DNA from: a virus
DNA length: 64,000 nucleotides
IMG/VR virus record: IMGVR_UViG_3300030117_004654
Coordinates: 27,866-91,865 of that record
Strand: one strand, 5' to 3'
Both the position numbers and the translations under genes were made by a program. A model generated the notes under the pieces. It searched no databases and was not told where the DNA came from. It saw nothing but the letters and a program-made list of their open reading frames with translations. Shown here in pieces: positions 38 through 45,015 of this stretch (position 1 is the first letter of the stretch; each line of letters starts with the position of its first letter).

Positions 38-676
38 TCATTTACCTCCGGGCGGTTTTTGTTCTAAAGAGTAAATAAACTTTCTGTGCTTTTGTCCATA
101 TCGAGCAAGCATTTGTTTTGCTGATTGTGGAAATTTATCTTTATTCCAATCTTTTAATTCTTTTCTTGCAAGCAATTCTAATCTAGTTAACTTATTTTTT
201 TGTCTATGAGTTTTTGCCCAACGATTAACATAATTGATAAGTCTAGCAATTTTAGCGGGCATTTCTTTATGTGTTAATTCTTGACTAAGGCCTAGAATAT
301 AAGCGAACTTATTAAAATCTTGCTTTATTGTGTCTGGATGTTCAAGAAATTCTTTTAATGCAACATAAGGATTTTCAGGAAACATTCCCATATAAGCCAC
401 ATATTCTTTCTTTCTATTAGGATGCCAATAAAACTCTTCATCGGCTGCGTCGTGGGCTGCATGAGTTGATTCGTGCATAATCACTCTTTTAACATATTCC
501 ATTAATTCCTTTTCAGTTGGTTCTCTACCCAATTTAGTTTTTACAAAATCATAAATCTTTTTATGATTAATTTGGATATTACTAAATTCTGGCATATTAC
601 CCCAAGATTCATAATGACCTAATCCTTTAGGTTCATCACTAAAGTCAATATCAACCTTAAGAATATCCCACCACAT
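38..676 (-). CDS. Putative zincin-like metallopeptidase with N-terminal WxxILK tag
   Basis: IMHESTHAAH (HExxH) followed by KKEYVAY (candidate third Glu ligand); begins MWWDILK. Confidence 0.6.
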   Translation of the reverse strand: MWWDILKVDIDFSDEPKGLGHYESWGNMPEFSNIQINHKKIYDFVKTKLGREPTEKELMEYVKRVIMHESTHAAHDAADEEFYWHPNRKKEYVAYMGMFPENPYVALKEFLEHPDTIKQDFNKFAYILGLSQELTHKEMPAKIARLINYVNRWAKTHRQKNKLTRLELLARKELKDWNKDKFPQSAKQMLARYGQKHRKFIYSLEQKPPGGK

Positions 677-688
677 AATTATATCCCC

Positions 689-1225
689 TTATATCGAAGC
701 CCCTGCTCTACTTTCTACTAGGAAAATCTCATCTGATTCTATACCGTATTTTTTACCATCTATTGCGGGAGTTTCTTTATCTAATATAACCTGCTCAAAG
801 TCAACGTATCTTTCTTCAGGCTTCCAATCCATATCAAGTTCTATCAATTCTCTCTTCTTTTCTTCAGGTGTTTGGTTCTCTAAAAACTCTAATGGGTCAC
901 GGATATATTTTACACTACCAAATGAACTTAATATTTTACCGTTGTAATTTTCTTTGAACCATTCTATTAATGTTTTAAGATTTTTAGCATAAATAGTTTT
1001 ACCTACACCAACCACAACACCGGTTTTATACCCATCGTAATCGGAATTACTGTAATCAAATTGACTAGAATCAAATGTAACATATTGTCCAGCAGGAACA
1101 TATGTAAATTTCATTCCATATTCTTCTTCTTTTATTTTAATAACTTTATGATTAGGTATAAGAATTCGTTTTTTGGGTTCAGGGTCTTGTCCCCCTCTTC
1201 TTCTTTTCAAAATATCAAACCACAT
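689..1225 (-). CDS. Hypothetical protein, WxxILK-tag family
   Basis: 178-aa ORF beginning MWFDILK; GGTGA upstream; start overlaps upstream stop (TAATG). Confidence 0.75.
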   Translation of the reverse strand: MWFDILKRRRGGQDPEPKKRILIPNHKVIKIKEEEYGMKFTYVPAGQYVTFDSSQFDYSNSDYDGYKTGVVVGVGKTIYAKNLKTLIEWFKENYNGKILSSFGSVKYIRDPLEFLENQTPEEKKRELIELDMDWKPEERYVDFEQVILDKETPAIDGKKYGIESDEIFLVESRAGASI

Positions 1226-1590
1226 TATTCATCACCATATGTATATTCATACCAATCCCAATGAACCATATCAAGTAATTCTTCAAAATCTGCCGCTATC
1301 TTATCCCATTCAACATCTGCTAAAGCATGAGTTTGAGTAAACTCTTCAAGCATTAATTGGTAAGTCAAGCCCATATGAGGCGAATTTAGAATATTATGTA
1401 AATTCTTGGCTAACCACATTTCAGTTTGTTCAGGTGTTATGTTTTTTTCATTAGGATGTGGGTATTCCGGCGAGTCAGGGTCTAAAGCAATTGATAAAAG
1501 ATGTTTTGCCATCTCCCCATCTTCAACAAATATCTTACTATACATAGCCTGAGTAGCAGCGTTGCCTGTTTTTAATATATTAAACCACAT
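1225..1590 (-). CDS. Hypothetical protein, WxxILK-tag family (start reassigned to 1590)
   Basis: Internal Met gives MWFNILK with a GGTGA RBS just upstream. Confidence 0.7.
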   Translation of the reverse strand: MWFNILKTGNAATQAMYSKIFVEDGEMAKHLLSIALDPDSPEYPHPNEKNITPEQTEMWLAKNLHNILNSPHMGLTYQLMLEEFTQTHALADVEWDKIAADFEELLDMVHWDWYEYTYGDE

Positions 1591-1591
1591 A

Positions 1592-2197
1592 TTATTCACC
1601 AACAGGTTCGTAATCAATCAATAATGCTCTCCAAGTTTTCTCAAAACTATCACTATATTTCTTTACTGCCCATGCTGCATTAGGGTCATTTTCATATCTA
1701 TTTTTAAACCATTGAATGGTTTTTTCTGGTATACCCGGAAATTGTTCTAAAGCCTTTTCTGAAGGATTAATAATCCAATTAAATCTACCTCTTTGCATAT
1801 TTAAATATTTTCCGAGTGGAGTCGCTTTTGGCTTCAATCCTGCAATTTTAGGAACAACTATATTAGCATCTCTAGTATCTGCTAATCTAGAATAAACACC
1901 TCTAACCCCATTTGTTGTTCGATATTTAGGTATAACATAAGCATCACCAAAGAAAGCATAATCTCCTGCTAATTGATACCCAATAAAACCGACAGGTTTT
2001 CCTTTATCTTCAACATTAAAGTTATCATCATTATGAATTGCAACAATATATCTATTAATAGGATACATTTCAGATAATTCTGGATTTCTGGGGTCTAATT
2101 TTTTACCCCAAGATTCCTGCCAACGAGAAGCGATAGTACTTTTATCAGAATTTTGAAATCGAATCTCTAATTCGTGCATTTGATTTTCTTCAGTCAT
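1592..2197 (-). CDS. Putative GNAT-family acetyltransferase
   Basis: PVGFIG...FFGDAYVIPKYRTTNGVRGVYSRL resembles GNAT motif A (V.P.YR..G); C-terminal EKTWRALL. Confidence 0.5.
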   Translation of the reverse strand: MTEENQMHELEIRFQNSDKSTIASRWQESWGKKLDPRNPELSEMYPINRYIVAIHNDDNFNVEDKGKPVGFIGYQLAGDYAFFGDAYVIPKYRTTNGVRGVYSRLADTRDANIVVPKIAGLKPKATPLGKYLNMQRGRFNWIINPSEKALEQFPGIPEKTIQWFKNRYENDPNAAWAVKKYSDSFEKTWRALLIDYEPVGE

Positions 2198-4689
2198 CTA
2201 CACAACCCCTTAATCTTATAAATGATTTCTCCGCTAAGACCATAATTAGAAGAAAGATTTTGCATAGAGTCATGAGATTTAACTATTGAATCAATTTCAA
2301 TTGTAGTAACTTCGACCTTATCTTCTTTATGAATTCTATTTATTAGATAATCCATATCAGAAATATCATCAGTAAATAACTCACCATAATAAATTTTTAA
2401 TCCAGCCGATTTTCTGATAACATCATAAGCATTCATAATAGCATCATTGATTTCATCAGACTTTCTAACAGAAGGACTACTGACCTCTAAAAATTTATTA
2501 ACAAGTTCTTGTAATTTTTTACCACTAATCTCTCTAAACTTTTGTTCCTTTCTTAAAATTTGATTCATTTGTTCAGAAGAGAGTAATGTACGAAGTCTAG
2601 TAATAGGTTTCCTAGAATCTAATTTATCATACTCACTTAAGTTCTTACCCATAAAATTAATGGTACTAAGGTCAACATCAGGATAATTTCTTGTAGCAAT
2701 AGTTGAAGCATAGTCAGCCGCCCAATTTCTATTATCTTCTTCAAATTTTTCAGGTAATAATTCATCTAATATTTCAACAATATCTTCTAACGCTTGAATA
2801 AATATCGGCCAACTTTCTTCTCCACCCTTTCTAATAGTTTCAAAGAAATTAATAAGTTCTTGCAAATCAGTAATAGTAATATTTTCAGCATATCCATCCA
2901 AGATTTCTTGTTCTGCCTTAACCTCATCAGTTTGTGAAAAATTCATTTTAAGATTTCTAAAATCATAATTTCTAACATCTTCTGCAAAATCAGGTTTCTC
3001 ATCTTCAGCAAACATATTAGAAGTTAATGGACCGAAATAATATTTATCCATAGATTCTATCAAATTTTTAATAGCAGTATTAAATGTTTCTTCATCAAAC
3101 TTTCTCTTAATTGATGGTCTAAATGGTTGCGCTCTATCCATTCTCATTCCTGTTTTTGGAGGCGTTTTCTTACCTGCTTGTAATGGTGGTGCGCCGCTTC
3201 CACTCATAACATCACTAACACTTTGAGAAACCATAAATTGACCCTTACTTTCAATTAAAACATCATTAAGGAAAGCAAAGAAATCTTCAGCACTTTGATT
3301 TAAATTAGCATAATCCTGTTGTTTTATGGTTCCATCTTCACCTTCCATTAATTCAACTAACCAATCAGTGTAAGGAAGATAAACCGAATCATATTCGCTT
3401 TCAGCAGATGTTTCCATAATTTGTTCCCAAATATTCATTGCGTTTTTATATTCAGAATCTGTTGATTTTTCATAAGCATATTGTAAAAATTCTTTCATGT
3501 ATTCTTTGAAGAAATCTGACTCATCAAATGCAATAGGGATAGATATGTCATCAAATAATTGAGCCTCAATAATGTAATATAAAATAGGGTCAACCTTTTT
3601 ATTTTTAGTTAACAAATCAGTTTCTTCTAACGCAAGTTCACTCATTTGGCCTCTAACTTTACCTAATTTTTCTTTCCAATCTCTAGCAGTTCTTCCAAAA
3701 ATATCTTCCATATCTGAACTAGAAATTGCTTTTGGTGCATCCCGTATAACAACAGATTCTCCAACAACAGGCTCATTAATTCTTTGTCCCTGTTCAGTAT
3801 TAGGTCCGGGCCTTTGTAATTGAGTTAAATAATTTTTTGCTTCGTTTCTTGCACCTTCTTCATATTCTTTAAGATTCATACCAAGAGGTAATTTACCACC
3901 TAACATTTCCATTACTTTTAATAGACGCAATTGTTCTTTTTCTAATTTAATTCTAGGTGATTTAACATTAATTACATATTTAGGCAATTCTGGAATAGTT
4001 AACCCATGTTCCTCATTTGACCAAAAATCAGTATTTTTTAATTCTTTTGTAAATTGTTTCCAAGAGGTTTCTAACGCAGACCATTCATCATTAACCTTAT
4101 CCCAAAAAGTGTAGATAGTATCTCTATCTTTAGATAATGTTATATCAACATCATTAATTTCATCTAGCATACCATCAATAGTTAGTGTAACTTTCTTTAA
4201 TTTAGAAGGGTCAGGCATATTTGCTACATCTGCTGATAATTTAATCATTACTTGTTGTAATTGGGAAACACCTTCCATGCCCTGCTTTGATAACAATTGC
4301 TCAACAATTTCTAATTGTCCTAATAATTCTTCTAAATCGTCATCATCCTTAATGTATGTAAAATTGGGAGTAACCTTATTGACATTAAAGTTAGAAATTA
4401 AATTATTGTATTTCAAGTTACCTGAACCATATTTAATGTTCTTAAAATACTGTTTATCAATTTTATCAATTTGAGCAGGAGGGAAATACTGTGGCCCAGC
4501 GTCAGCAGACTTATCTCCTTCAGAAATAATTTCATCTAAATATTCATCAAAATCTAAACCTTCTGCTTCAATTGCATCTTCATAATCATCTTGGAAATCA
4601 TCAGACCAACGAGATACTTTATTTTGTATTTTGGCTTGTTTATAAGCCTCTATAAATTCTTGTTTTCTTTCTTCAAAACTCATATTCAT
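2194..4689 (-). CDS. Large acidic hypothetical protein, possible C-terminal HTH-like segment
   Basis: 831-aa ORF coupled to neighbours by ATGA overlaps; C-terminus SMQNLSSNYGLSGEIIYKIKG. Confidence 0.75.
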   Translation of the reverse strand: MNMSFEERKQEFIEAYKQAKIQNKVSRWSDDFQDDYEDAIEAEGLDFDEYLDEIISEGDKSADAGPQYFPPAQIDKIDKQYFKNIKYGSGNLKYNNLISNFNVNKVTPNFTYIKDDDDLEELLGQLEIVEQLLSKQGMEGVSQLQQVMIKLSADVANMPDPSKLKKVTLTIDGMLDEINDVDITLSKDRDTIYTFWDKVNDEWSALETSWKQFTKELKNTDFWSNEEHGLTIPELPKYVINVKSPRIKLEKEQLRLLKVMEMLGGKLPLGMNLKEYEEGARNEAKNYLTQLQRPGPNTEQGQRINEPVVGESVVIRDAPKAISSSDMEDIFGRTARDWKEKLGKVRGQMSELALEETDLLTKNKKVDPILYYIIEAQLFDDISIPIAFDESDFFKEYMKEFLQYAYEKSTDSEYKNAMNIWEQIMETSAESEYDSVYLPYTDWLVELMEGEDGTIKQQDYANLNQSAEDFFAFLNDVLIESKGQFMVSQSVSDVMSGSGAPPLQAGKKTPPKTGMRMDRAQPFRPSIKRKFDEETFNTAIKNLIESMDKYYFGPLTSNMFAEDEKPDFAEDVRNYDFRNLKMNFSQTDEVKAEQEILDGYAENITITDLQELINFFETIRKGGEESWPIFIQALEDIVEILDELLPEKFEEDNRNWAADYASTIATRNYPDVDLSTINFMGKNLSEYDKLDSRKPITRLRTLLSSEQMNQILRKEQKFREISGKKLQELVNKFLEVSSPSVRKSDEINDAIMNAYDVIRKSAGLKIYYGELFTDDISDMDYLINRIHKEDKVEVTTIEIDSIVKSHDSMQNLSSNYGLSGEIIYKIKGLCR

Positions 4690-6965
4690 TCCTCCGTTAA
4701 GAACCCTTCCTTGACTAAATCATCTAATAATTCAGGATATGTAGAATTTATTGCATCCATTTGATTATTTTTAATTTTCTCTAATCTTTTTTTAACAAGC
4801 CCTTTTATTCCATCTCTAATATTTTCCAAAGCCGTTTGCAAAGTTTTAGAAAAATCATCAACATCACTATCTAATTCTCCATCTAAAATATTTCTTAGTC
4901 TTTCTTTTTCTGGAATCTTTTCTTGATACTTATCATTTAATGTATGAAGAAGTGGTCTTAAAACTTTTTGGTCAGCAACTTCTTTTTCAACCTTTCCTAA
5001 AAAATCTATCACAGATATAAAATTAGAATTAGATAATTTTAGTTTTTCTTCCGGAGAAGAAGTAATTATTCCATTTGGACCTGTTAAATCTGAGGATGTA
5101 TAATACACATCGAATAAAGTGTATGCTATTGTTTTTTCTAGAGGAGAACCACTTTTAAGTTTATTTGCATCCTTAAATGTGCCTTCTTCTATATTACCAA
5201 CAAGACCTTGAAGGTGAAACTCTTTAGTTAAATGCCTATTATCAGGATTACGTCTAAAGGTTCTAAACCTACTTCTTAACGCCCTCCAATTACTAGGTGG
5301 ATTATCTAAATATAGATAGTTATGTAACTCTCTAACTATTTCCGAATATTTATCCGAACCTTCAGGTAATTTATACAACCCAACGACCTGTTTTGCACCG
5401 CCCTCTTTGGTCTGTGTGGGGGATTTTTCGCCACCGACCACCCCGAAACCACTGTTCTGACGGCCCTGTTTTTTTGAAATGAAATCAGAACGTTCTTCAG
5501 GAGAATAAGCGCGTAAAAACGCATCTACAAGTTTTTTATTATCGCCTTGAGGGTTCGCTTCTTGAAGTGCCGAGGCCAATAGGTCAATAAAATCAACGAA
5601 ATCTTTAGTAACTGAATTTCTAATTCTAGAAATCTTATCCTTCATACTTTGAACATATTTATCTCTAGACTCATTATAGATATTTTTATCTGGACTATTT
5701 AATTGAGCATTAAGAATAGTTTTATATTGTTTTTCATCTAAGTTATCTCTACCAAGTATTGTTAGAATACCGTCATCATCTTTATTACCGGTATTATATT
5801 TATTCCAAGATTGATTAACATAATCTTCTTTTACTGCATCTTCTCGTATAACAATACTAGATAATTCTGAAAACCATTCATTAGCAAGAGTATTTTCTAC
5901 TTCAGTATTTTGTTTCATAATTCCTTCTAGTAGAGGATTTAGCCACATCCTTTGATTTTTTTCCTGTTTACCTTTTAAGAATTTATTTAGACCTAATCCC
6001 ACCTTTAAATATCCTCTAATGGGATTGCCTCTAATTTTCTTTTTAGTTGCAAATTTTCTAAGATAAGTTAATGCTTCTCGTGGTGTAATATCATTAACTT
6101 GGTATTTTTTGATTTCTACATCTTGCTTAAGATGGCCAAAGAAAGCCTTAAGTTTTGGAGTATCTTCTGGAACATATTGAATAAGAGTTTGTACTGTTTC
6201 ATCACCAAGAGAACTTATTAGTAATACTTTATCTCTTCTTTTTGGTTGTAAACTTTTATAATTTTTAGCCATTAAAGTTTCAATTTCATCCCAATCTGGA
6301 GTTTGATTTGCCTTCAATGTTTCTGCCGCATCTTTGAGTAAATCTACTAATTGAGCATGGGCTAATTTTTGAGTTTGTGGTGGAGAACTCCTACCACCAT
6401 GAGTTGAATCATGTTCTTTGAACTTCTCCATCAATGGTTGTAATTTAACATAATTCTCTTTAACTAAATTTCTATTTTCTTTAAATTCGGCCCTATCAGT
6501 TTTTCTCTCAGAAAATGGAATTAAATCTTTTGCCGCAGAATTTTCATTCCATTCAAAGAATTTTTTATAAGTAATAGTTGGCTGCATAAATCCAGCAAAA
6601 GCATACTTATCAAATGTTTTTTCAAACAATTGTAGTTGTAAATCAAATGATATATCTGTAAGAAGTTTCCTCCACTTAGAATTATTTCTTCCGGGCAATT
6701 GTAATTTAGTAACAGATTTTTCTGACTTAAGCATCTTGTTTTCTTTAGTCATCTCGTCTAACCAATCTCTTGCATACTTAACAAAAAAATCTACTTCCTT
6801 TTCAGAATGCATTTTAATTAATTCTAGAATATAACTATTAATAAGATTATACCAATTAGGGTTTATTTTTTTAGCCTTACGCCAAATTTCAGGGGCGGCA
6901 TCATAAACCTCTTTCAATTTAGAAAGATTAGTTTTTTCTACCTTTAGAATATTTGCCCAATTCAT
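4686..6965 (-). CDS. Large hypothetical protein, WxxILK-tag family
   Basis: 759-aa ORF beginning MNWANILK. Confidence 0.8.
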   Translation of the reverse strand: MNWANILKVEKTNLSKLKEVYDAAPEIWRKAKKINPNWYNLINSYILELIKMHSEKEVDFFVKYARDWLDEMTKENKMLKSEKSVTKLQLPGRNNSKWRKLLTDISFDLQLQLFEKTFDKYAFAGFMQPTITYKKFFEWNENSAAKDLIPFSERKTDRAEFKENRNLVKENYVKLQPLMEKFKEHDSTHGGRSSPPQTQKLAHAQLVDLLKDAAETLKANQTPDWDEIETLMAKNYKSLQPKRRDKVLLISSLGDETVQTLIQYVPEDTPKLKAFFGHLKQDVEIKKYQVNDITPREALTYLRKFATKKKIRGNPIRGYLKVGLGLNKFLKGKQEKNQRMWLNPLLEGIMKQNTEVENTLANEWFSELSSIVIREDAVKEDYVNQSWNKYNTGNKDDDGILTILGRDNLDEKQYKTILNAQLNSPDKNIYNESRDKYVQSMKDKISRIRNSVTKDFVDFIDLLASALQEANPQGDNKKLVDAFLRAYSPEERSDFISKKQGRQNSGFGVVGGEKSPTQTKEGGAKQVVGLYKLPEGSDKYSEIVRELHNYLYLDNPPSNWRALRSRFRTFRRNPDNRHLTKEFHLQGLVGNIEEGTFKDANKLKSGSPLEKTIAYTLFDVYYTSSDLTGPNGIITSSPEEKLKLSNSNFISVIDFLGKVEKEVADQKVLRPLLHTLNDKYQEKIPEKERLRNILDGELDSDVDDFSKTLQTALENIRDGIKGLVKKRLEKIKNNQMDAINSTYPELLDDLVKEGFLTEE

Positions 6966-8953
6966 GACTGTTCCTCCGGTTCAGGCTCATCAGGTTTCAT
7001 TTCTTCTTCCTTTTCTTCTTCCGCAAAAGTTTCTTTAGGCGGTTGAGTTGTTTCATCACTAATTGTTAATTCTTCTTCAGGTTCTTTTTCTTCAGGTTCT
7101 TCTGCCTGTTGTTCTTTTTCTTCAGGTGTTGGGTCAGGTGTTGGGTCAACTGCTCTTTCATGTGCATTTGATACCCAATCGCGTTCTGCTGCATTATATT
7201 TCCATTGACCATCAGGAGATAATTCGCCGTCTTTAGGGGCAGGTTTACCCATACTTCCTTCTTTCCAATCTCCCCCTTCTTGTGTTTCTGATTCAGGGAC
7301 TTCTCGCAACGGTGTCCTTTCTCGTAATCCATATTTCTGCTTAAATTCGCCTAATTTTCTTTTATGCCAAGGTGTAGTTTGTCGCATTACTTGTTTTTTA
7401 TTTCTTTGCAACATCTCTCTCCAATCATATAAATCTCTAGTTGGCATTTTAAATTCTGCCTCATTTTCTGGAAGTGCTTCGCCTTCTGCCCCAAATTTCT
7501 TTTCCCAATTAATAGGGATTTTTCTATCTAAACTTCTTATTGTTTTTCTCCAACCTTGAGGTCTTTCACTTTCAGCAACATCCATAATTTTCTTTTTTTG
7601 TTCAACTGCGTCAATAATCTTTTTCTTCTTTCTTTCTCTACCTCTTTGGATAGCACTGTCTTGGTCAGCAACATTACCCATCATACGCATTTCTTGCTCA
7701 AATCTTTTTTGATGCCATTTATCAGAACCGGGAGTATATTTAGAAGTTTTTAGTTGTTCTTTCCATCTACCAAGTTTTTCTTTACCAGCACCATATAATT
7801 CTTTACCCTTTTCTTTACCGGTATCATATAATTCTTTACCTGCATCAAAAACCATTTGAGCAGCATCACCTTGAACATTTCTCATTTGCGTTCTTGCTGC
7901 TGGGCCTAATCTTTCTTCTCTTTCTCTACGTTGTGCTTCCAACATATCTCTACGTTCATTTTCATCAGTAGCCTCATCAAACGCTTGATTAAACTCATCT
8001 CTTCTTAATTTATCTTGCCACCTATCATAAGCCTGTTTATGATGTTCTTTACCCCTTTGTTCTTTAGCAGGTTTATCTACCATTTCTCCTCTTAGGGCTT
8101 CTAATAATCTATTTCTATTTTGTTCTTGAGAAGAAGTTCTTTTATCAGAAACATCCCTAAATGCTTCTGTTAATCTTTCTAAATTTTTAGGTTGTGATGC
8201 TATTGTTTTTTCACGTAATTGTTGCAATCTTGATTTAGGAACAGGTTTATCTAATAACCTTTCTACTGCTGTTTTACCCCTTGGTTTATCAACTAAAGCA
8301 GATAAAGCAGGTGTTTTTTCCTTTCTCCATTCTTCGGGAGATAATGATGCTAATCTCTCTTTTTCTGCAATTTCTTCATCTTCTCTTTGAATATCTTCTT
8401 CAATTTCTGTAAGCCACTCATCGCCTACTTTATTTCTTCTTTTAGTATCTGCACCACGACGGGCGGCTTCTGAGCGTTTATCGGCTAATGCCTCTTGTTC
8501 GCCCTCTTCTACTAATCTACGTTGTTCTAGAATATCTTCTCCGCGAAGACGATTTCTTTCCTCTTCTTTTTCTCTTCTTCTTGCAGACTCTATTCCTCTT
8601 TGTTCTAATTTGGCTTGTTCCGCACGTTCACCTTCAAGGAATTTTTCTCTATTTGCTGCATCTAATTCTAATCCACTTAATTGTTGTTCTCCTCTTGAAC
8701 GTGGACCAAAACCTAATGCTCTTATAGCCCTTTGTGACCAAGTTTCTTTAGGAAGTTCTCCTTCCCCTGACCTTGCTCTTTCCATTCTTTCTTTTCTTTC
8801 AGCAGCAACTCTTTCTTTTTCTGCTTCTCTAGCCATATAGTCACTAAATTCATCTTCAGTCATATCTGAATCAGATGCTTCTTGAATTCTTCTCATTGTA
8901 TCTTGATGAGCCCTTCGGCTTTTTTCGATGTTTAATGTATCTTTCCAAGTCAT
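6962..8953 (-). CDS. Highly charged coiled-coil/low-complexity protein, degenerate WxxILK tag
   Basis: 663 aa, E/R/K-rich, begins MTWKDTLN; short repeat GKELYDTGKEKGKELYGAGKEK; acidic Pro-rich tail. Confidence 0.8.
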   Translation of the reverse strand: MTWKDTLNIEKSRRAHQDTMRRIQEASDSDMTEDEFSDYMAREAEKERVAAERKERMERARSGEGELPKETWSQRAIRALGFGPRSRGEQQLSGLELDAANREKFLEGERAEQAKLEQRGIESARRREKEEERNRLRGEDILEQRRLVEEGEQEALADKRSEAARRGADTKRRNKVGDEWLTEIEEDIQREDEEIAEKERLASLSPEEWRKEKTPALSALVDKPRGKTAVERLLDKPVPKSRLQQLREKTIASQPKNLERLTEAFRDVSDKRTSSQEQNRNRLLEALRGEMVDKPAKEQRGKEHHKQAYDRWQDKLRRDEFNQAFDEATDENERRDMLEAQRREREERLGPAARTQMRNVQGDAAQMVFDAGKELYDTGKEKGKELYGAGKEKLGRWKEQLKTSKYTPGSDKWHQKRFEQEMRMMGNVADQDSAIQRGRERKKKKIIDAVEQKKKIMDVAESERPQGWRKTIRSLDRKIPINWEKKFGAEGEALPENEAEFKMPTRDLYDWREMLQRNKKQVMRQTTPWHKRKLGEFKQKYGLRERTPLREVPESETQEGGDWKEGSMGKPAPKDGELSPDGQWKYNAAERDWVSNAHERAVDPTPDPTPEEKEQQAEEPEEKEPEEELTISDETTQPPKETFAEEEKEEEMKPDEPEPEEQS

Positions 8954-9090
8954 TGCTCATCACCCCAATACCATTCATAAATTTTATCTATTATATCTTT
9001 ATGTTCGTTCTTATGGTCGCGCCAAATTTTCTTTTTATTTAAGTTTTTATATCCTTCAAGTTGAGCGTTCCAATAGTCCCAATTGAACAT
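8950..9090 (-). CDS. Small Trp-rich hypothetical protein (46 aa, not in ORF track)
   Basis: MFNWDYWNAQLEGYKNLNKKKIWRDHKNEHKDIIDKIYEWYWGDEQ; ATGA overlap with the next gene. Confidence 0.55.
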   Translation of the reverse strand: MFNWDYWNAQLEGYKNLNKKKIWRDHKNEHKDIIDKIYEWYWGDEQ

Positions 9091-9162
9091 TATAATCCTT
9101 TTCCCCATACTGTATATCTTGGCAAATACTGTGCGTATTTAGATAACCATGTTGCTAATTTA

Positions 9163-9477
9163 TCAATCACTTTCTTCGCCTAACCAATTAAGTAAAATTT
9201 TCTTATTTGCTTCTTTGTCTGCAAATCTACCGTGTAAGGAAGGGGCTAAATCATATTCCCTAAGCATCATTTGAATTTGTTTAAGCACCATTCTAGCGGT
9301 TTCAGGGTCTTCTGCTGACATATATGTTTTTATCATATTCAAAAGAACAGGTCGCATTCTTTCTTTCATAGCCGCCTGAACTTCTTTTTCTGCTTCTCTT
9401 ACATCTTTTGGTGCAAATCTTCTTGCATCAGATATAGCATCCTTTGTGCTAATTTTTAATATATCTTCCCAACTCAT
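9163..9477 (-). CDS. Hypothetical protein, WxxILK-tag family
   Basis: Begins MSWEDILK. Confidence 0.75.
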   Translation of the reverse strand: MSWEDILKISTKDAISDARRFAPKDVREAEKEVQAAMKERMRPVLLNMIKTYMSAEDPETARMVLKQIQMMLREYDLAPSLHGRFADKEANKKILLNWLGEESD

Positions 9478-9938
9478 TGTAATTCCTCCTTAATTTCATC
9501 TATCCGTCTTTTTAATTCAGACATTTCTCTTTCTCTAGATGCCCCATACCTTTTGTAATCAACATTATTCTTACGTTTAGTATGTGAATGAACATTTTTA
9601 ATCCTATCATATTCTTTTTGAAGACGTTTTAACTCTCTCATTAACGGGTCACGTTTAGTAGATTCTATTAATTCTCTAGCCCTAACGTCAACATCACTTT
9701 TAAGTGTCTCTGCGGTTTCTAAACTTTTATCCGGTTCAATTCTTTCAAACTTTGTCCATAAACTGGGATTAGTTCTTCCATCAAACGGGTCATCATATAA
9801 ATTAGAAAACCAATATGTTCCATTTATTTTATGAAATAAGTAAACAGTTTTACCTGAAGAATTTGCTAATTTTTGTGCTTCTGCTCTAGTAGAATCTAAA
9901 TCGCTACTTTCTTTTCTAAGAATATCTTCCCAACTCAT
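9474..9938 (-). CDS. Hypothetical protein, WxxILK-tag family
   Basis: Begins MSWEDILRK; C-terminal coiled coil. Confidence 0.75.
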   Translation of the reverse strand: MSWEDILRKESSDLDSTRAEAQKLANSSGKTVYLFHKINGTYWFSNLYDDPFDGRTNPSLWTKFERIEPDKSLETAETLKSDVDVRARELIESTKRDPLMRELKRLQKEYDRIKNVHSHTKRKNNVDYKRYGASREREMSELKRRIDEIKEELQ

Positions 9939-10597
9939 TGTAACTTCCTTTCCATTTCTTTCTTAACATCTAACCAGACATTAGGGTGTTGTTGAGCCAA
10001 GACTTCTTTAACAATTTGCATCTGTGCAATAACAATAGTATCCTGTCTTTTGTGAATAAGTTTACCTTTGAATTCCATAAGGTATTTTAGGCTCTCTCTA
10101 ACTTCTCTCGCTAACTTAGTTAATGAGTCAATCTGTTTAGCGTCTAAAACTTCCTCTTGGAAAATCTCATCTAATTTAATATCTAATTTCTGAATGTTCT
10201 TTGAAAGTAATTCAATTTCATCTAACTCTTTCTTAGCAATAATAGTGGCTGCTGATTTCTGAACAACAGGTTGAAGGTGACTTTTCATGTGAACTGCAAT
10301 TTGTTCTCTTGTTGTCCCTAATGTTTCTGCAAGAGCCTTTGAAGATAAAGTCCCATCTTTAACTCCTTTTTCAAAAATATCTCTCATAGGGTGAGTGCAA
10401 ACTTTACATCGAGGATTAGCCTTTTCTTCATATTCTCCAATATGATTCCTTAAATGTCTACTTGATACACCTGAAGGCCAACCCATTTTTTTATCTAATT
10501 CATCAGGTGTAATAGATAAAGAATTTAACGAATTTTCTAATTCTTCTCTGTCATCATGTTGACAAAGGCGACAATGCTTACGGGTTTTCTTACTCAT
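9935..10597 (-). CDS. Putative terminase small subunit-like Zn/HTH DNA-binding protein
   Basis: Two tandem CxxCxH...HxxxH units (CRLCQH...RHLRNH; CKVCTH...HMKSH), each with an HTH-like core, then a helical C-terminal region. Confidence 0.5.
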   Translation of the reverse strand: MSKKTRKHCRLCQHDDREELENSLNSLSITPDELDKKMGWPSGVSSRHLRNHIGEYEEKANPRCKVCTHPMRDIFEKGVKDGTLSSKALAETLGTTREQIAVHMKSHLQPVVQKSAATIIAKKELDEIELLSKNIQKLDIKLDEIFQEEVLDAKQIDSLTKLAREVRESLKYLMEFKGKLIHKRQDTIVIAQMQIVKEVLAQQHPNVWLDVKKEMERKLQ

Positions 10598-10740
10598 TCG
10601 TGGTCCACCTTTACAATAAATTTAGCAATCTTCATTAATTTGTTCCAACCCTCTTCATCATCATTATCAAAATGTTCAAGCAATAAACTAATATGACCAC
10701 GCAATTCTTTATTTGCTTTACAATAATCCATTTTACTCAT
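10594..10740 (-). CDS. Small hypothetical protein (48 aa, not in ORF track)
   Basis: MSKMDYCKANKELRGHISLLLEHFDNDDEEGWNKLMKIAKFIVKVDHE; ATGA overlaps on both sides. Confidence 0.6.
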   Translation of the reverse strand: MSKMDYCKANKELRGHISLLLEHFDNDDEEGWNKLMKIAKFIVKVDHE

Positions 10741-12014
10741 AAGTAATCTCTCCATAAATGTTGTGACCATGATTTTTTAACATTACCTCCACCTTCAGGC
10801 GGTTCATCAGGTAATGCCCATCTTGGAATAGTTAGCCCTTCTTGCTTTGCTCGTTTTAATTCAGCATTAAATAATTCCTTTCTTTTTTCTTGGACTCTAG
10901 CAGCATCGAACAAAAATATACCTGTCTTCCCATCGTGCTTGAAAGTATCTAAAGTATAACGACCTAAATCCATTTGAGAAATAATAGTTCTAATTAATGA
11001 ATTAGAAATCCCTTGAATATAAAATGATTCTAATTGTCCTGCCAAATCTGCATTACCTGAAGCACGTAAAACCAAGTCACTTAGTTTTTCATCATTAGGG
11101 TCAATAATAAATTTAGTTTCCATTAACTTACGACGGTAAGCATTAAAGTTAATCTGCAATCTTTTGAATGGGGCATTAGCACTATGATAAACTGATTGGT
11201 CTTTAAGAATAACTTGCATTGTTTCAATTACTGCTGGAACTTGTTGTAATAATTCCCTTTGTCCTCTACCTTTAATCTGTAATTCTTCTAAAGGTTGTTC
11301 CTCAATCTCTTCTTCAAGTTTTCTCAATAAAGGTAATAGCCCTGTTGTAATAACATCACCGTCACCATCTGCAAAAAGGGCTTGCCAAAAAGGAGGCTTT
11401 GCTGTATTAGGACTTCTCTTAATCCAATCATCACCCATTTCAATATTAGGCTCATTTTTACCTTTAACTTCCTCTCTATACTTTACATAGGTAGGAGTTC
11501 TATAATGACCATAAACAGTTTCCCATTCATCTACACCATCAGCAGTTAAAGATTTAGGAACAGTAAATGGAATATTTCTAGGATTAGTTTTCTCATCTCT
11601 CTCAATCTCTTCTAAATCTTCAATGAAATCTTCTATCGCTAAAAGTTCCTTTGTCTTAAATGCATGAACATCCCCAATCATTTCCATTACTGAATCAATA
11701 ATATCCATAGAACCCTGTCTTTCAGGTTGTCCGGCTCTTTGATAACCACTATCAATATGTCTAGTAATATGTTCTAACAAACTCCTACTACCATGTTTAC
11801 CTGTAACACCAATAGAGTTCATAGTCTTACTTCTACAAGTATTATACCATGCAGTAATTTCTTTTTTAATTTTATTTAAAGAACTAGTAGTAATAACTTT
11901 TACTTTATCGCCACTATCTAATGTTTCTTCAGCAGCACCTTTCTTAGCCTTCTTAGTAGACTTTACAATAAAGTCCTCTAAAGCATAAGACTTTAGAACT
12001 TGTTGCCATGCCAT
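10737..12014 (-). CDS. Hypothetical protein, WxxILK-tag family (N- and C-terminal copies)
   Basis: Start MAWQQVLKS; C-terminus KKSWSQHLWRDYL. Confidence 0.75.
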   Translation of the reverse strand: MAWQQVLKSYALEDFIVKSTKKAKKGAAEETLDSGDKVKVITTSSLNKIKKEITAWYNTCRSKTMNSIGVTGKHGSRSLLEHITRHIDSGYQRAGQPERQGSMDIIDSVMEMIGDVHAFKTKELLAIEDFIEDLEEIERDEKTNPRNIPFTVPKSLTADGVDEWETVYGHYRTPTYVKYREEVKGKNEPNIEMGDDWIKRSPNTAKPPFWQALFADGDGDVITTGLLPLLRKLEEEIEEQPLEELQIKGRGQRELLQQVPAVIETMQVILKDQSVYHSANAPFKRLQINFNAYRRKLMETKFIIDPNDEKLSDLVLRASGNADLAGQLESFYIQGISNSLIRTIISQMDLGRYTLDTFKHDGKTGIFLFDAARVQEKRKELFNAELKRAKQEGLTIPRWALPDEPPEGGGNVKKSWSQHLWRDYL

Positions 12015-12019
12015 AATAA

Positions 12020-12280
12020 TCACTCAAATCCTTCATACATACTACAATAACCTTTTTCATTAACATCAACAAAATTTAATTGACATTCTCCATAGGCATT
12101 ATGTTTACAGGTTCTTGCTTCACACTTTCTAACCTTACATTTATCTTTTCCACCAAAACCTGCTTTTTGGTTTTTGGGTGGTTTATCATAAGATGCTGCT
12201 TTATCTTCTCTACGTTGACGCATCTCACGTAAATCATATTCACGTTCAGATTTTGGGTGCAATTGTTCTTTCCAACTCAT
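12020..12280 (-). CDS. Small Cys-rich (DUF1540-like) protein with degenerate tag
   Basis: MSWKEQL...; CEARTCKHNAYGEC...GYCSMY pattern. Confidence 0.55.
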   Translation of the reverse strand: MSWKEQLHPKSEREYDLREMRQRREDKAASYDKPPKNQKAGFGGKDKCKVRKCEARTCKHNAYGECQLNFVDVNEKGYCSMYEGFE

Positions 12281-12564
12281 ATTACACCACCTGTCCTAGT
12301 TACTTCATAAACCACTTTATTATCACCTTGTGATTTTAATTTAAAATGATATACTTCATAATAATCTCTACTCTCTTCTTCAATTTTAAATTCCTTAATA
12401 GGTTTACCTTTTTTCGCTCTCACAATTTTATCGGCTTTACCTTCTACGCCACTAAAAAGTCCCTCTTCAATTGGATTATTTCTATCATATACCCATTCTC
12501 CGATTGCACCTTTAGGGCCGGGTTTAAAATTAATTCTTGATTTTAATATGTCTTCCCAACTCAT
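12277..12564 (-). CDS. Hypothetical protein, WxxILK-tag family (start reassigned to 12564)
   Basis: MSWEDILKS with a GGTGA RBS upstream. Confidence 0.7.
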   Translation of the reverse strand: MSWEDILKSRINFKPGPKGAIGEWVYDRNNPIEEGLFSGVEGKADKIVRAKKGKPIKEFKIEEESRDYYEVYHFKLKSQGDNKVVYEVTRTGGVI

Positions 12565-12565
12565 T

Positions 12566-12913
12566 TTAATCACCAATTCTATCATATAGTGGCTGAATAT
12601 CTTCTTCAGCATGATTAAGACCTATTATTGGATAGTCTATTGTTTCCATTGGTAATGTAGCAAAATTTTCTAATTCCCTCATAATTTTTTTTATTTTATT
12701 CACATCATTAATTGGGTCTAATTTGTAAAGTGGATTTGTTATTTTATCAAATTGTTTCGCCCAATAAGCATCGCTACCATCTGAATACATTTCAAACGTT
12801 TGAATGCCATAACCTTCAAGTTCATTGTAGAGCCAATCCTTCCAAAGTTTTCTTATCATTTCCTCCAATGGAGGATATTCGGCATCTGTTTTCAATATAT
12901 CCTTCCAACTCAT
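12566..12913 (-). CDS. Hypothetical protein, WxxILK-tag family
   Basis: Begins MSWKDILKT. Confidence 0.75.
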   Translation of the reverse strand: MSWKDILKTDAEYPPLEEMIRKLWKDWLYNELEGYGIQTFEMYSDGSDAYWAKQFDKITNPLYKLDPINDVNKIKKIMRELENFATLPMETIDYPIIGLNHAEEDIQPLYDRIGD

Positions 12914-12914
12914 T

Positions 12915-14429
12915 TCAATCCCTCCAAAAATCTAATTCTTTAGGAACAATCAACTGTTCGTTTTCTTCTTCCTTTTTAGTTTTCTTTTTCTTTTTTCCAA
13001 CTACTTTATTGTTTATTAATCCGGGTGTTGAATTAGAAGCAGTTACAGGACCACCTTGTTTAAGAGCATCAAACCATGATTTTTCCATATTCTCCACATC
13101 ATCTTTTCTTCTTCCTCTATGTCCTCTTACAGGTCCACGCTGTTTCATTCTAATAGCCGCCTTACGCCTTTTTTCTTGTTCATCCTTAGTTCTTACTCTT
13201 TCTTCTTGTTTATCCGTGTCTGCTAAAAACTGTTGATAATTTTGTTGAATGGATGATAAACGAGATTTTTCTTTTTCTTTTTGTTCTCTATAATATCTAT
13301 CTCTTTTTTCTTGTTCTTCTCGCTTTTTACGTGCCAATCTTCTTTCAGATATTTCTGATAATTTTTTAGCATACTTGTCTAAATCTTGAGAAGAAGGTAA
13401 ACTATCACTTAACATCTTTTCATATTTTTCAAGAGCAGGTTGCACTGATTCCATTATTGCTGGTTCAGCAACTCTTTGAATTAAAAGTGTATCAATTAAT
13501 CTCCAAGGAGGGGTTTCATAAAGTTCCCAAAGATTTCTAACAGTAGAATCATCTAATGCTTCTTCATAAGCCTTTTTCCAAAAACCATTGAGAATTTCTA
13601 ATCTTTTTTCTTCTTTAGTAGAGATAGCATTAACAATATCACTTCTATAATATCTACTCTCTAAAGGTAAAAATGAGCCTAACGCACCACCTGTTCTAGT
13701 GAGTATTATATTAATATTTGACTCATGTTGTTTTCTGTTATCATCAGCCATTTTTTGAGACTTAGAAAGAAAATCCTGCATAGCAATTTTAACCCTACCT
13801 TTGCTAGAACCAACAAAGCGAAGAATTCTTGGGGAAGACTTAAGTGCATAATCCTTTAATGATTTCATATCATTAATACCTTTTGCTTCTTTTTCTGCCT
13901 CATGCTTTGCTCGCTTCTCTGTATCTAAAGCACCAATATTTCCGGGATGAAGAGGTTCTCTTTCTGGATATTTTCTTCTTTGACCCTGCATTATTTCTCT
14001 ACTTGGTTTAATAATATATTCAGTTGCATCAGGAAACTTATCACCTAATTGTGCTTCAATTTCAGATTTAACTTGAGCCTGTCTTTGTTTTCTAGGAACT
14101 TCAAATTTATAACCTGCGCGGATTAATTTCTGGTGTAAACTATCTTTACCTCTAGCGCGAGTAATAGGTCTATTTGTAACAAACTTAAAACCCCAATCAA
14201 GGTTCTTTTTAGCACCTCTCGGTGATTCAGTTAAAACCCCTTCTTCAGTAATTACTGCGGGGTCAACTTTTTGAATAGTGGGTCCACGAATAATACGAAT
14301 ATCTTCTTCACCTCTATCCCATGATTCTAGAATACTAATTAACACTTCTGGATTATATTCAAAATTAACTCTACGGCTCTTTTCGTCAAATTCAACAAGA
14401 GGTCTTTTAATAATATTTTCCCAACTCAT
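12915..14429 (-). CDS. Basic coiled-coil hypothetical protein, WxxILK-tag family
   Basis: Begins MSWENIIK; internal MEKSWFDALKQ near the C-terminus; poly-Lys tail. Confidence 0.8.
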   Translation of the reverse strand: MSWENIIKRPLVEFDEKSRRVNFEYNPEVLISILESWDRGEEDIRIIRGPTIQKVDPAVITEEGVLTESPRGAKKNLDWGFKFVTNRPITRARGKDSLHQKLIRAGYKFEVPRKQRQAQVKSEIEAQLGDKFPDATEYIIKPSREIMQGQRRKYPEREPLHPGNIGALDTEKRAKHEAEKEAKGINDMKSLKDYALKSSPRILRFVGSSKGRVKIAMQDFLSKSQKMADDNRKQHESNINIILTRTGGALGSFLPLESRYYRSDIVNAISTKEEKRLEILNGFWKKAYEEALDDSTVRNLWELYETPPWRLIDTLLIQRVAEPAIMESVQPALEKYEKMLSDSLPSSQDLDKYAKKLSEISERRLARKKREEQEKRDRYYREQKEKEKSRLSSIQQNYQQFLADTDKQEERVRTKDEQEKRRKAAIRMKQRGPVRGHRGRRKDDVENMEKSWFDALKQGGPVTASNSTPGLINNKVVGKKKKKTKKEEENEQLIVPKELDFWRD

Positions 14430-15070
14430 TTCTTACCACCTTTTATTCTTAAGATTCTATTTTTAAATGTAAGGGTTAAAAAGTTCCATTTTCTTTCCGC
14501 TTCCTGCCCAATAACATTTGCTAAATTTCTTTGAATAGGTTTTAATTCAAATCTTAACAAATCTTCAACCATATCTTCAATGCGACCCATCATATCATAA
14601 TTGTCTTTCAATTCTGCATATTTTAAATTCTTCTCACTAGAATAGGCAAACAACTCTTCCATAAATAACATTTCAGTATAATCGCCAACTAATCTTTTTA
14701 ACTCTTTTTGGCTACTAACAAAATTGTTAACATCTACATCTTTAACTAATTTTTTTAATTCCTTCTCAAACTTATTATATCTAGGTTGCATTTCACTTGC
14801 CATAGCCTGATGAGTAACTTCATGTGTATCTATATCAATTAGTAATTCAATAAAATCATCAATATCATTTGCGGTAACACCATCTTCTATTACACTTTCC
14901 CATACATTATCTAAAAATACTACCGCCCTATCTGTTTTTTCATCATATACCCCTAAAGATACAATAGGTTCTTTTGCAGTAGTGTTTGGATTAGTATCAT
15001 ATATTCCATCTTTTCTATCTAATTCACGTAATGATGTAGAAAGTTCAGCCTTCAATATATCTGTCCACAA
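14426..15070 (-). CDS. Putative zincin-like metallopeptidase, WxxILK-tag family
   Basis: TTG start with GGTGA RBS; MWTDILKA; DTHEVTHQAM (HExxH) and downstream EELFAY. Confidence 0.6.
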   Translation of the reverse strand: MWTDILKAELSTSLRELDRKDGIYDTNPNTTAKEPIVSLGVYDEKTDRAVVFLDNVWESVIEDGVTANDIDDFIELLIDIDTHEVTHQAMASEMQPRYNKFEKELKKLVKDVDVNNFVSSQKELKRLVGDYTEMLFMEELFAYSSEKNLKYAELKDNYDMMGRIEDMVEDLLRFELKPIQRNLANVIGQEAERKWNFLTLTFKNRILRIKGGKK

Positions 15071-15100
15071 AATATCACCAAATTTTTGGGGGAAATTTTT

Positions 15101-15418
15101 TTAAACAGGATGTTTTCCTACTTTAATTATACACGACATATACATATCGGACAATTTTCTAAATTTTTCTAAACTAGGATGAGTATAATCTTCTGTCATA
15201 TGGTCTTTGTATGCCGGAGGGTCATATTCACCTGTACGAGTATTAAAGGAATATTTATCATCCCATTCAATTAGGAAATCTTCAATATTACCCCATACTT
15301 TTTCAGCACCTTCAAGAGTTAAATCATGATTCGTATTAAACATTTTATTATATTCAGTAATAAGTTGTTTTTCACAAGGTCCGAATTCTTCATTTTTAAG
15401 TATATCCATCCAATTCAT
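15101..15418 (-). CDS. Hypothetical protein, WxxILK-tag family; first gene of the left-arm block
   Basis: Begins MNWMDILK; GGTGA RBS. Confidence 0.75.
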   Translation of the reverse strand: MNWMDILKNEEFGPCEKQLITEYNKMFNTNHDLTLEGAEKVWGNIEDFLIEWDDKYSFNTRTGEYDPPAYKDHMTEDYTHPSLEKFRKLSDMYMSCIIKVGKHPV

Positions 15419-38195: not shown

Positions 38196-39725
38196 TTGAG
38201 TTGGGCAAGATTTTCTAGACTAAATCAAGCGATAGAAGATTTGTCGCCTACGGCTTCGATTGTTCAAGTTAAGAGAGCATGGGATTTATTTGATGATAAG
38301 GAAGCATTAGTTTCCTTATTGACATTAGAATACCCAATGAATAACTTAGGACAAAAGAAAGCAGTAAAGTGGGTAACAAAGTTTTATGAAGCGTTTGATG
38401 ATGAAATTGAACAGTATGCAGATATGTATGGTGATTTGGGAGAAGGTATTTATTTCTTTGATGAAGGTGGTGAAGATAGTAATTTTTCAATAACTGCTGT
38501 TTATAATCTAATTATACAGGATTGTAGTAGAATTGAAAGTAATACATTTGACAATTTTGATTCTATGTTTGAAGAAATGTCTGCTCTTGAAAAGAAGTGG
38601 TTTTTACGCTATTGGCTTAGAACACCTCGTCATGGATTTGGTGCAGGTAATGTTGTAAAGGCCTTGGCTAAAATTTATGATAAGAAACAAGCAGAAGTAA
38701 AAAAGCATTGTAATTTCAATACTTATAGTAATGTTGTATCTGCTTATGAAAGTGGCGAAACGCCTTCAATGGATTTAACTGTTGGTTCGTATGTTGCACC
38801 GATGTTGGCTAAAGCAGTTCCTAAGAATAAATGGCCAAGAGAGAAACTTGTTGAATATAAGTATGATGGTGCAAGATATCAAATTCATCGAGATAATGAC
38901 ACTGTAATCATATTCAACCGAAAAGGTGTAATTGTAACAGAACAATTCCCTGATGTTGTCACAAAGGTACGTTCATGGGAAATTTCTCCCTTTATTGTGG
39001 ATTCAGAGATTTATCCAATTAATGAAGATGGTTCACCCGCGAAATTTCAACTGATGAATGCTCGCTTCCATAGCAAGGATGCGAATGAGGCCGTGAATAA
39101 ATGCCCCGTTGCGATTGCAATTTTTGATTGTTTAATGATAAGGGGGAATGGGCTTATTGATACCCCATTAAAGGATAGAATTCAATTTATCGAAATGTTT
39201 CCTGACCAAGCCGTGAGGGTCTTGAACCCCGACAACTCGATTCCATTTTATTCAGAAGCGATTTCTAAAGGGTTTGAAGGTATAATGATTAAAGACCTTA
39301 ATGCTTGTTATGAATCAGGAAAACGTTCAGTTAAGTGGGCAAAATACAAACCGCCCACAATAGAATTAGACGTAGTTATTACAGGTGCTAGATATGGAGA
39401 TGGAAAAAGGGCTAATGTAATGGCTTCATATGATATGGCGGTTTCAGATTCAGAAGGTGGATTTATTTCTATTGGGGCCGTTGGAACAGGTTTTTCTGAT
39501 TCTGACTTTTTAAGTTTAACTAGACAACTTAAACCAATTGTAACTCATTTGGATGGTGATACTCATAAGGTTACACCAAGGATTGTTTTACAAGTAAAGG
39601 CTGATTTAGTCACTTCTAATGAAAAGGGGGAATATGGATTAAGGTTTCCTCGTAAAACTAGAATTAGAAACGATAAGCCCGTTAGTGATATTAACACAAT
39701 TGATGATATGAAGGGGATGATGTAA
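38196..39725 (+). CDS. lig: ATP-dependent DNA ligase
   Basis: PMLA, EYKYDGARYQIH, FDCL, EGIMIK, WAKYK, VGTGFSD, LRFPR..IRNDK. Confidence 0.96.
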   Translation: MSWARFSRLNQAIEDLSPTASIVQVKRAWDLFDDKEALVSLLTLEYPMNNLGQKKAVKWVTKFYEAFDDEIEQYADMYGDLGEGIYFFDEGGEDSNFSITAVYNLIIQDCSRIESNTFDNFDSMFEEMSALEKKWFLRYWLRTPRHGFGAGNVVKALAKIYDKKQAEVKKHCNFNTYSNVVSAYESGETPSMDLTVGSYVAPMLAKAVPKNKWPREKLVEYKYDGARYQIHRDNDTVIIFNRKGVIVTEQFPDVVTKVRSWEISPFIVDSEIYPINEDGSPAKFQLMNARFHSKDANEAVNKCPVAIAIFDCLMIRGNGLIDTPLKDRIQFIEMFPDQAVRVLNPDNSIPFYSEAISKGFEGIMIKDLNACYESGKRSVKWAKYKPPTIELDVVITGARYGDGKRANVMASYDMAVSDSEGGFISIGAVGTGFSDSDFLSLTRQLKPIVTHLDGDTHKVTPRIVLQVKADLVTSNEKGEYGLRFPRKTRIRNDKPVSDINTIDDMKGMM

Positions 39726-44805: not shown

Positions 44806-45015
44806 ATGAATCATTATAGATTAAATAGATTGACGATTGATTTAGATGAAGTGGAATCTATTGAATGGTCAAACGTGTCTAATGAAACATTAGATGAAAA
44901 TCCTGATTTATATCAGGTAGTCCTACATATGAAGAGTGGAAAGAAATTTACACGAAGAGTATATAGGAAACAATTTGAAGAATTGATTGAAGAATTTGAA
45001 GGTGAAGAAGAATGA
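44806..45015 (+). CDS. Hypothetical protein
   Basis: GAGGTGA RBS; coupled ORF. Confidence 0.65.
   Translation: MNHYRLNRLTIDLDEVESIEWSNVSNETLDENPDLYQVVLHMKSGKKFTRRVYRKQFEELIEEFEGEEE

Follow-up and report, generated by a model that had tools for sequence, protein, structure and literature searches.

Cargo-loading peptides of encapsulins, which comprise about ten residues at a protein terminus, direct diverse cargo into a shell of HK97 fold, and the gp4 protease of phage HK97 has a C-terminal capsid-targeting segment; gp4 reportedly cleaves gp5 after Lys103, a result attributed to Duda, Oh and Hendrix in 2013. In phage T4, the internal proteins IPI, IPII, IPIII and Alt bear a capsid-targeting sequence (CTS), which the prohead protease gp21 removes (PMC7411985), whereas the scaffolding protein SP of phage 80alpha and CpmB of SaPI1 bind the coat protein through a C-terminal helix-and-hook with an RIIK motif (PMC5644958). 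Among the Dar anti-restriction proteins of phage P1, the N-terminus of DarA is removed by the prohead protease Pro (PMC12810830). Here we analyse an eight-residue N-terminal peptide with the consensus M-[S/N/T]-W-x-[D/E/N]-[I/V]-[L/I]-K, hereafter the tag, which recurs on otherwise largely unrelated proteins encoded in a 64,000-nucleotide window (bases 27866-91865) of the single 91,865-bp viral contig IMGVR_UViG_3300030117_004654, and which could be a capsid-loading label comparable to the CTS of T4.

Magroviruses are among the most abundant archaeal viruses of the surface ocean, and the majority of their genes have no known function. The plus strand of the contig encodes a replication and expression set of archaeal type (TFIIB, a thermosome subunit, an ATP-dependent DNA ligase, a family-B DNA polymerase and a ribonucleotide reductase), and the minus strand holds the structural arm, part of which lies upstream of the window. 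The portal (genome 23038-24666, minus strand) is 26% identical to the portals of the haloarchaeal siphoviruses HVTV-1, HCTV-1 and HCTV-5, in a similar gene order. Magroviruses, which infect Marine Group II archaea, are recognised by a genome of ~90-100 kb in which archaeal-type replication genes (PolB, RFC, ligase, chaperonin) are combined with a head module like that of haloviruses. The genome analysed here corresponds to their published description (PMC5434244), and the virus is a magrovirus, a tailed virus of Poseidoniales.

A short N-terminal tag on proteins of the structural arm

The fourteen tagged N-termini that the original prediction had listed in the window were all confirmed at their minus-strand starts. 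Twelve fit M-x(0-1)-W-x-x-[IV]-[LI]-[KR], and those at 8953 (MTWKDTLN) and 12280 (MSWKEQLH) are degenerate; the starts at 1590, 12014 and 12564 are internal ATGs of slightly longer open reading frames (ORFs), each with a Shine-Dalgarno-like GGTGAT immediately upstream. Eight further tagged genes begin upstream of the window, at genome positions 9499, 10138, 10372, 10645, 10888, 19692, 23033 and 25093. Composition predicts 0.7 occurrences of strict W..[IV][LI]K in the proteome, but there are 16, and every one of these matches lies 1-3 residues past a start codon, with none inside any protein of this genome. The regular expression marks 20 of the 53 structural-arm ORFs, as compared with 0 of 66 on the plus strand (Fisher p = 8e-9), bearing out the observation that the full motif is absent from the plus-strand replication genes, and two degenerate tags, recognised by eye, raise the structural-arm total to ~22 of 53. 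Short N-terminal peptides on unrelated proteins, as in a CTS of the T4 type, thus number 16 in strict form and 22 overall. The tag is also absent from three large minus-strand ORFs at the contig's right end. The nearest approach on the plus strand is the start MSWSNVKTGE of a 283-aa protein (45012-45863; window coordinates throughout, unless marked as genome), where the Trp is present and the full I-L-K is missing. One tagged gene of 84 aa (MSWQDILK) contains an assembly gap, a run of ten Ns at genome 9363-9372, so that its protein sequence is incomplete.

The same distribution extends to related viruses. Eighty IMG/VR loci found through the portal (62-84% identity) contain ~280 tagged ORFs in 99 distinct families, all on the portal strand; a DNA scan for the canonical MSWEDILK returned 81 more stretches, many of them on 85-99 kb contigs, with 450 tagged ORFs in 753 kb and tags never on both strands. 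These stretches add 198 families, bringing the lineage to roughly 300. In five complete relatives (90.9-99.3 kb), which have 9-20 tags each, all 71 tags fall within ~27 kb around the portal and on its strand; the opposite strand, which encodes PolB, has 0 tags, and a reversed-pattern control also gave 0. No such tag was seen in a 41-kb stretch around the HVTV-1 portal, and of 81 IMG/VR loci that surround distantly related capsid proteins (31-51% identical to the query), a single one has it; the tag is therefore an innovation of this magrovirus lineage. A literature search found no description of it: the magrovirus papers searched mention no N-terminal motif, and the peptide strings gave no full-text match. 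One conserved tagged family (genome 19357-19692, minus strand; 74 loci) has a split tag in many relatives (MTWDYYEEGKEFILKE...), with the W and the I-L-K retained ~10 residues apart, or roughly three helical turns.

Never tagged are the core families of the arm, that is, the portal, the capsid protein, the protease-scaffold, the terminase-like protein (genome 26459-27901, minus strand) and the 831-aa and 852-aa proteins, and the tail tube protein (genome 2056-3693, minus strand) is untagged too. The 15-kb tagged block of the window had been taken for a head-assembly module. It is instead located upstream of the terminase, and the capsid protein, portal, protease-scaffold and terminase are untagged; a search of the whole genome and its relatives places the motif on the structural-arm strand only, and not on the hallmark head proteins.

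Codon usage was evaluated on 283 non-identical tags from this genome and the 80 relatives. The tag Lys is encoded by AAA and AAG in proportions (0.66/0.34) identical to background, all six Leu codons are in use, and Ile and Val are near background; because the codons for I, L and K match background usage, selection acts on the peptide. Position 2 is additionally shaped at the nucleotide level, because Ser is AGT in 89% of cases against 23% in the background and ATGA stop-start overlaps are found in 40% of tagged versus 13% of untagged genes; in 69% of tagged genes, the base after the ATG is an A. This bias, to which the ATGA overlaps contribute in part, reflects the tight packing of the gene array. 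The conserved residues of the tag are those at positions 3 and 6-8, with a W-x-x-I-L-K spacing that puts W, I and L on one helical face, and nothing is conserved after the Lys, where the following residues are polar and often Lys-rich. Hence, the earlier argument from synonymous codon variation holds for I, L and K and needs correction at position 2, and the idea of a portable signal selected as a peptide and placed on unrelated proteins is upheld by the ~300 families, the codon usage and the 66 tag-free replication-strand ORFs; its assignment to a head-assembly module is not.

Sequence properties of the tagged proteins

That the bodies behind the tag are unrelated is broadly true, the exceptions being one paralogue pair outside the window and a marginal match between the 759-aa and 663-aa proteins (E = 0.008). 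Even the two proteins with an HExxH motif (212 aa and 214 aa) have only the tag and HE-x-TH in common. Tagged proteins are small, with a median of ~106 aa, and split between basic and acidic, many being very basic or very acidic. A membrane-like hydrophobic segment is found in none of 113 tagged family representatives and none of 450 tagged ORFs, versus 16% of untagged ORFs, a set that may contain spurious ORFs. Judged by sequence, the tagged proteins are essentially soluble ORFans.

Pfam and PHROGs searches with the tagged proteins of this genome yielded nothing except matches under the Pfam cut-offs, and Pfam searches with 211 tagged-family representatives gave only scattered single matches (pentapeptide repeats, PAP2, DnaJ zinc finger, CotH, KH). 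Nothing meaningful emerged from sequence searches of the PDB with the 759-, 663-, 504- and 425-aa proteins, the ESM Atlas had no match to the 759-aa protein, and a homologue search with the 214-aa HExxH protein returned seven close relatives, none of them named. A tagged family of very basic small proteins in relatives (L077:6420-6854, L049:51-242, L035:3963-4145), which has a conserved W-P-S-A-Y-A-S-G-A-L-V-Q-C-R and poly-Lys/Arg directly after the tag, looks like DNA-binding core proteins at the level of sequence.

Tag-like sites in the head protease, scaffold and capsid protein

The head protease of this virus (genome 14798-16084, minus strand) matches Peptidase_S78 and continues, within one fusion protein, into an acidic linker and then a scaffold of coiled-coil type. 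In 44 aligned protease-scaffolds, the S78 domain is bracketed by an invariant D-F-x-I-L-K directly before the fold and an invariant K-F-D-I-L-K directly after it, and the C-terminus reads M-[S/D]-W-x-D-I-H-[K/N] around an invariant Trp (W408); in this genome, the tail is M-D-W-N-D-I-H-L. Tag and scaffold tail thus have M-[S/D]-W-x-D-I in common. In a poor model of the protease-scaffold (mean pLDDT 51), used for gross domain order only, the second motif K-F-D-I-L-K falls in an unstructured stretch past the last strand, and the final helix (W408-421) begins at the invariant Trp.

Across 14 core families, no more than five [ILV][LI]K triplets reach a conservation of ≥90%: three in the protease-scaffold, one in the T-L-L-K at residues 23-26 of the HK97-fold major capsid protein (genome 13423-14760, minus strand), and one in a ligase catalytic motif. 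A full HMMER search collected 361 capsid-protein homologues. Among 114 aligned capsid proteins (25-75% identity), the Lys of this site belongs to 16 near-invariant columns, with K at P1 in 103 of the 114, L, I, F or V at P3 in 100 and P2 free, and it is kept even in distant relatives that do not have the tag; the site includes no Trp. The capsid-protein model (mean pLDDT 83, pTM 0.82), whose fold is closest to those of Mic1, SU10, T5 and HK97, has a helix at residues 8-16 and a disordered segment at 17-53 that holds T-L-L-K, followed by the HK97 fold.

These hydrophobic-x-K sites, at the capsid-protein N-terminus, in the protease itself and at the scaffold junction, occupy the very places where cleavage by prohead proteases is known, and are on sequence grounds likely sites of the head protease; the tag ends with the signature of these likely sites. 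The predicted cut after the tag Lys would gain indirect support from the F-x-I-L-K brackets, from the hydrophobic-x-K of the capsid protein and from the Lys ahead of tag copies inside fused proteins of relatives.

Internal copies of the tag

Thirteen distinct internal copies of the tag are found in relatives, within longer ORFs that resemble two-body fusions. Lys stands 1-3 residues before the Trp in 11 of the 13, typically as hydrophobic-x-K-S-W, and the Ser is encoded by TCT, not by AGT as at gene starts; because of this codon, the internal copies are not freshly mutated start codons. Both the Lys and the Ser are thus retained as residues of the peptide, which would be expected if cleavage there produced an N-terminus with a tag of its own. 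In this genome, similar remnants end two proteins, one of 201 aa (FEKTWRALLI) and one of 425 aa (VKKSWSQHL). In one relative (L022), a 424-aa ORF starting at 5003 joins a body of the 201-aa type, via L-K-K-S-W-R-D-I-L-K, to an HExxH body like those of the tagged 212-aa and 214-aa proteins of this genome; with the degenerate tag that ends the 201-aa protein, this suggests gene fission and fusion at tag junctions.

A possible capsid-loading label and its alternatives

The reading that we favour, to which we nevertheless give a little less than an even chance, is that the tag is a capsid-loading label cut after its Lys, by analogy with the CTS of T4. The tag would fold into a short amphipathic turn, W, I and L lying on the same face, and would dock its protein within the procapsid during assembly. 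The HK97-fold capsid protein or the protease-scaffold core would be its partner there, in a mode expected also for the scaffold's own C-terminal tryptophan helix. The S78 prohead protease would then cut after the tag Lys, using the same hydrophobic-x-K site with which it may trim the capsid-protein N-terminus and release itself from propeptide and scaffold. The variable small soluble proteins would stay in the head and probably enter the host with the DNA. The lack of membrane-like segments in tagged proteins speaks for this scheme, and so does a depletion of [IV][LI]K in cargo bodies (24 observed versus 40 expected, with control motifs not depleted), although the corresponding z = -3 is optimistic, as the test counts related sequences.

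Several points weigh against this scheme. Situated upstream of the terminase and adjoining the divergent intergenic region, the main tagged block could be an early host-takeover cluster, and 22 cargo species, including proteins of 759, 663, 504 and 425 aa, are many for one capsid. The scaffold tail departs from the tag at two positions (H for L and, in this genome, L for K), no covariation of the tag with scaffold-tail variants was found by eye between relatives, and chance alone would give 0.7 occurrences of the relaxed motif per proteome. The protease-scaffold model gives little beyond domain order, the Lys specificity of the S78 protease is one that we infer, and the magrovirus proteins are known here from sequence alone. 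The check proposed with the original prediction, by semi-tryptic N-termini after the K, would fail: trypsin-based proteomics cannot test a cut after Lys, because trypsin itself yields peptides that start after Lys.

The position of the block would also fit a tag that docks on some other common partner, such as a chaperonin, a viral JAMM/ubiquitin-like system, a clamp or a transcription factor, and thereby gathers or regulates cytoplasmic host-takeover proteins. The W-x-x-[IV]-L core is shaped like many linear motifs for hydrophobic grooves, transcription of the arm begins with the main tagged block at the divergent intergenic region, and a JAMM protease is encoded in all five complete tag-bearing relatives; the virus-encoded thermosome, by contrast, is missing from two of these five and was for that reason rejected as a required virus-encoded reader of the tag. 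We regard docking of this kind as unlikely, albeit deserving attention, since it leaves unexplained the match of the tag end to the protease-domain brackets and the capsid-protein N-terminus, the small tagged genes wedged among terminase, portal and head-tail genes, and the Lys before the internal copies.

The last of these features, together with the hydrophobic-x-K signature at the expected substrates of the protease, would also suit a tag that is a protease site only, whose eight residues are removed by the prohead protease or by a Lys-specific host protease as a timed on/off switch with no role in loading; the internal copies do resemble places of cleavage within fusions of two domains. 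The prohead proteases of this family are active within the procapsid, however, as in HK97 and T4 (PMC7411985), so that being cut implies being inside. Moreover, an invariant Trp five residues before the Lys and a likeness to the scaffold tail are needless for a bare cleavage site, and the capsid-protein site itself does without a Trp. A switch without loading is, on this balance, quite improbable.

The strictly N-terminal position of the tag in this genome, and the presence in the tagged block of a conserved protein with a weak GNAT match, are what would be expected if the tag protected or marked the N-terminus, as a motif for an acetyltransferase or another modifying enzyme or as a cap against host N-end degradation. 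Residues 1-2 nonetheless vary (MS, MW, MN, MD, MK, MT), so that the Met would be sometimes retained and sometimes trimmed, unlike in known acetyltransferase substrates; conservation is concentrated at positions 3 and 6-8, and relatives have internal copies, all of which makes N-terminal marking a remote prospect. Finally, a nucleotide element (a translation-initiation enhancer, or a recombination linker for cassette shuffling) of which the peptide is a by-product has next to no chance of being right and is close to refuted by codon usage: the AGT preference, the A after ATG, the ATGA overlaps and a lean of early codons towards A-ending speak for it, but no DNA word other than ATG-A and TGG is conserved, the I, L and K codons are at background, the internal copies keep the peptide with different codons, and highly expressed late genes such as that of the capsid protein are untagged.

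The capsid-loading label can be extended to a programmable cargo system, which we put forward tentatively and with clearly less assurance than the label as such: the label, N-terminal or, in fusions, internal, would dock by mimicry of the scaffold tail and be trimmed by a Lys-specific S78 protease, and its cargo would be delivered to Poseidoniales. If so, the ~300 ORFan families would be a rapidly shuffled arsenal of injected effectors in very abundant archaeal viruses of the ocean, and the tag would be a minimal means of putting proteins into an HK97-fold shell. The label as such, if confirmed, would sort ~22 of the 53 structural-arm genes into one class of candidate virion-delivered proteins, with a pointer to how magroviruses take over their uncultivated Poseidoniales hosts, and would be the first system of capsid targeting to be reported from an archaeal virus or with an HK97-type (S78) protease.

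Gene order and genomic context

All genes of the tagged block in the window are on the minus strand. The arm opens at the divergent intergenic region with a 105-aa protein (15101-15418; MNWMDILK), followed by the 214-aa protein (14426-15070), which has a TTG start, (M)WTDILK and HEVTH in its body, and by the 504-aa protein (12915-14429; MSWENIIK), for which no relatives were found in IMG/VR with the patterns used. Next come two short tagged proteins of 115 aa (12566-12913; MSWKDILK) and 95 aa (12277-12564, from the ATG at 12564; MSWEDILK), an 86-aa protein with a Cys-rich body and the degenerate MSWKEQLH (12020-12280), and the 425-aa protein (10737-12014, from the ATG at 12014; MAWQQVLK) with the tag-like C-terminus described above. 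Proteins of 154 aa (9474-9938; MSWEDILR) and 104 aa (9163-9477; MSWEDILK), the latter in ATGA overlap with the gene upstream, precede the two largest tagged members of the block, the 663-aa protein with the degenerate MTWKDTLN (6962-8953) and the 759-aa protein (4686-6965; MNWANILK), which has no family, PDB or Atlas match.

Two untagged genes follow: that of the conserved 831-aa core protein (2194-4689), never tagged in 41 loci, and that of the 201-aa protein (1592-2197), which has the GNAT match below the Pfam cut-off and ends in FEKTWRALLI. The block closes with a 121-aa protein (1225-1590, from the ATG at 1590; MWFNILK), a 178-aa protein in which MWFDILK is followed by a basic RRRGG stretch (689-1225), and the 212-aa protein (38-676; MWWDILK) with HESTH in its body.

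Inside the head module, the gene between those of a 926-aa protein and the prohead protease (genome 16103-18661, minus strand) encodes 852 aa and includes an ATP-dependent DNA ligase domain (Pfam E = 2e-31). The protein is conserved in 76 of 81 loci. It is the second ligase of the virus, that of the replication module being encoded at 38196-39725; at the corresponding position, HVTV-1 has a 1313-aa gene annotated as 'zeta toxin'. At the right end of the contig, the minus strand has very large untagged ORFs at 58151-63595 (1814 aa) and 55724-57724 (666 aa), the second of them with no Pfam match; these may encode tail fibres or adhesins, as a continuation of the structural arm over the ends of the contig. 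In one of the complete relatives, the thermosome match (G001:C1:1280-2824) contains one TGA and one TAA and may be a decaying copy.

Comparison with known systems

Encapsulin peptides are usually C-terminal and uncleaved, and belong to bacterial and archaeal nanocompartments, not to viruses. The Dar proteins of P1 resemble the proposed cargo in being accessory proteins that are packaged in the head, trimmed N-terminally by the head protease and delivered with the DNA; they differ in that no shared short tag has been reported for them and that loading is hierarchical, through DarA/Hdf. HK97 gp4 is likewise a Peptidase_S78 enzyme that is brought into the procapsid by a terminal peptide, and the capsid-protein site has Lys at P1; HK97, however, is not known to have a tagged cargo family, and the delta domain of its capsid protein serves as the scaffold.

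In SP and CpmB, a short amphipathic helix that ends in hydrophobic-hydrophobic-Lys and is common to unrelated proteins enters a cleft of the HK97-fold coat protein, and the docking mode of the tag may, by analogy, resemble this helix-and-hook. The 80alpha motif is nonetheless C-terminal and is not a protease site, whereas the tag is N-terminal and its binding to the coat protein is putative.

T4, which the original prediction had named as an analogy, is the closest one. Both systems have a peptide of around ten residues at the N-terminus of unrelated proteins, and the cargo genes, candidates in the present virus, are small, variable and located outside the core head genes. The T4 peptide ends in the head-protease motif that is also used on the capsid protein, and the tag ends in what may be the corresponding motif of this virus. 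The T4 peptide is MKTYQEFIAE-like and is cut by gp21 after the Glu of [L/I]-x-E; here the peptide is M-x-W-x-x-I-L-K, the protease is of the HK97-type S78 family and the presumed cut follows Lys. The two peptides have no sequence similarity, and the host of the present virus is archaeal. Four proteins carry the peptide in T4, as compared with ~22 genes per genome and ~300 families here, which are known from sequence alone. In summary, since sequence, protease family and cleavage residue all differ, the likeness to T4 is one of analogy and not of homology.

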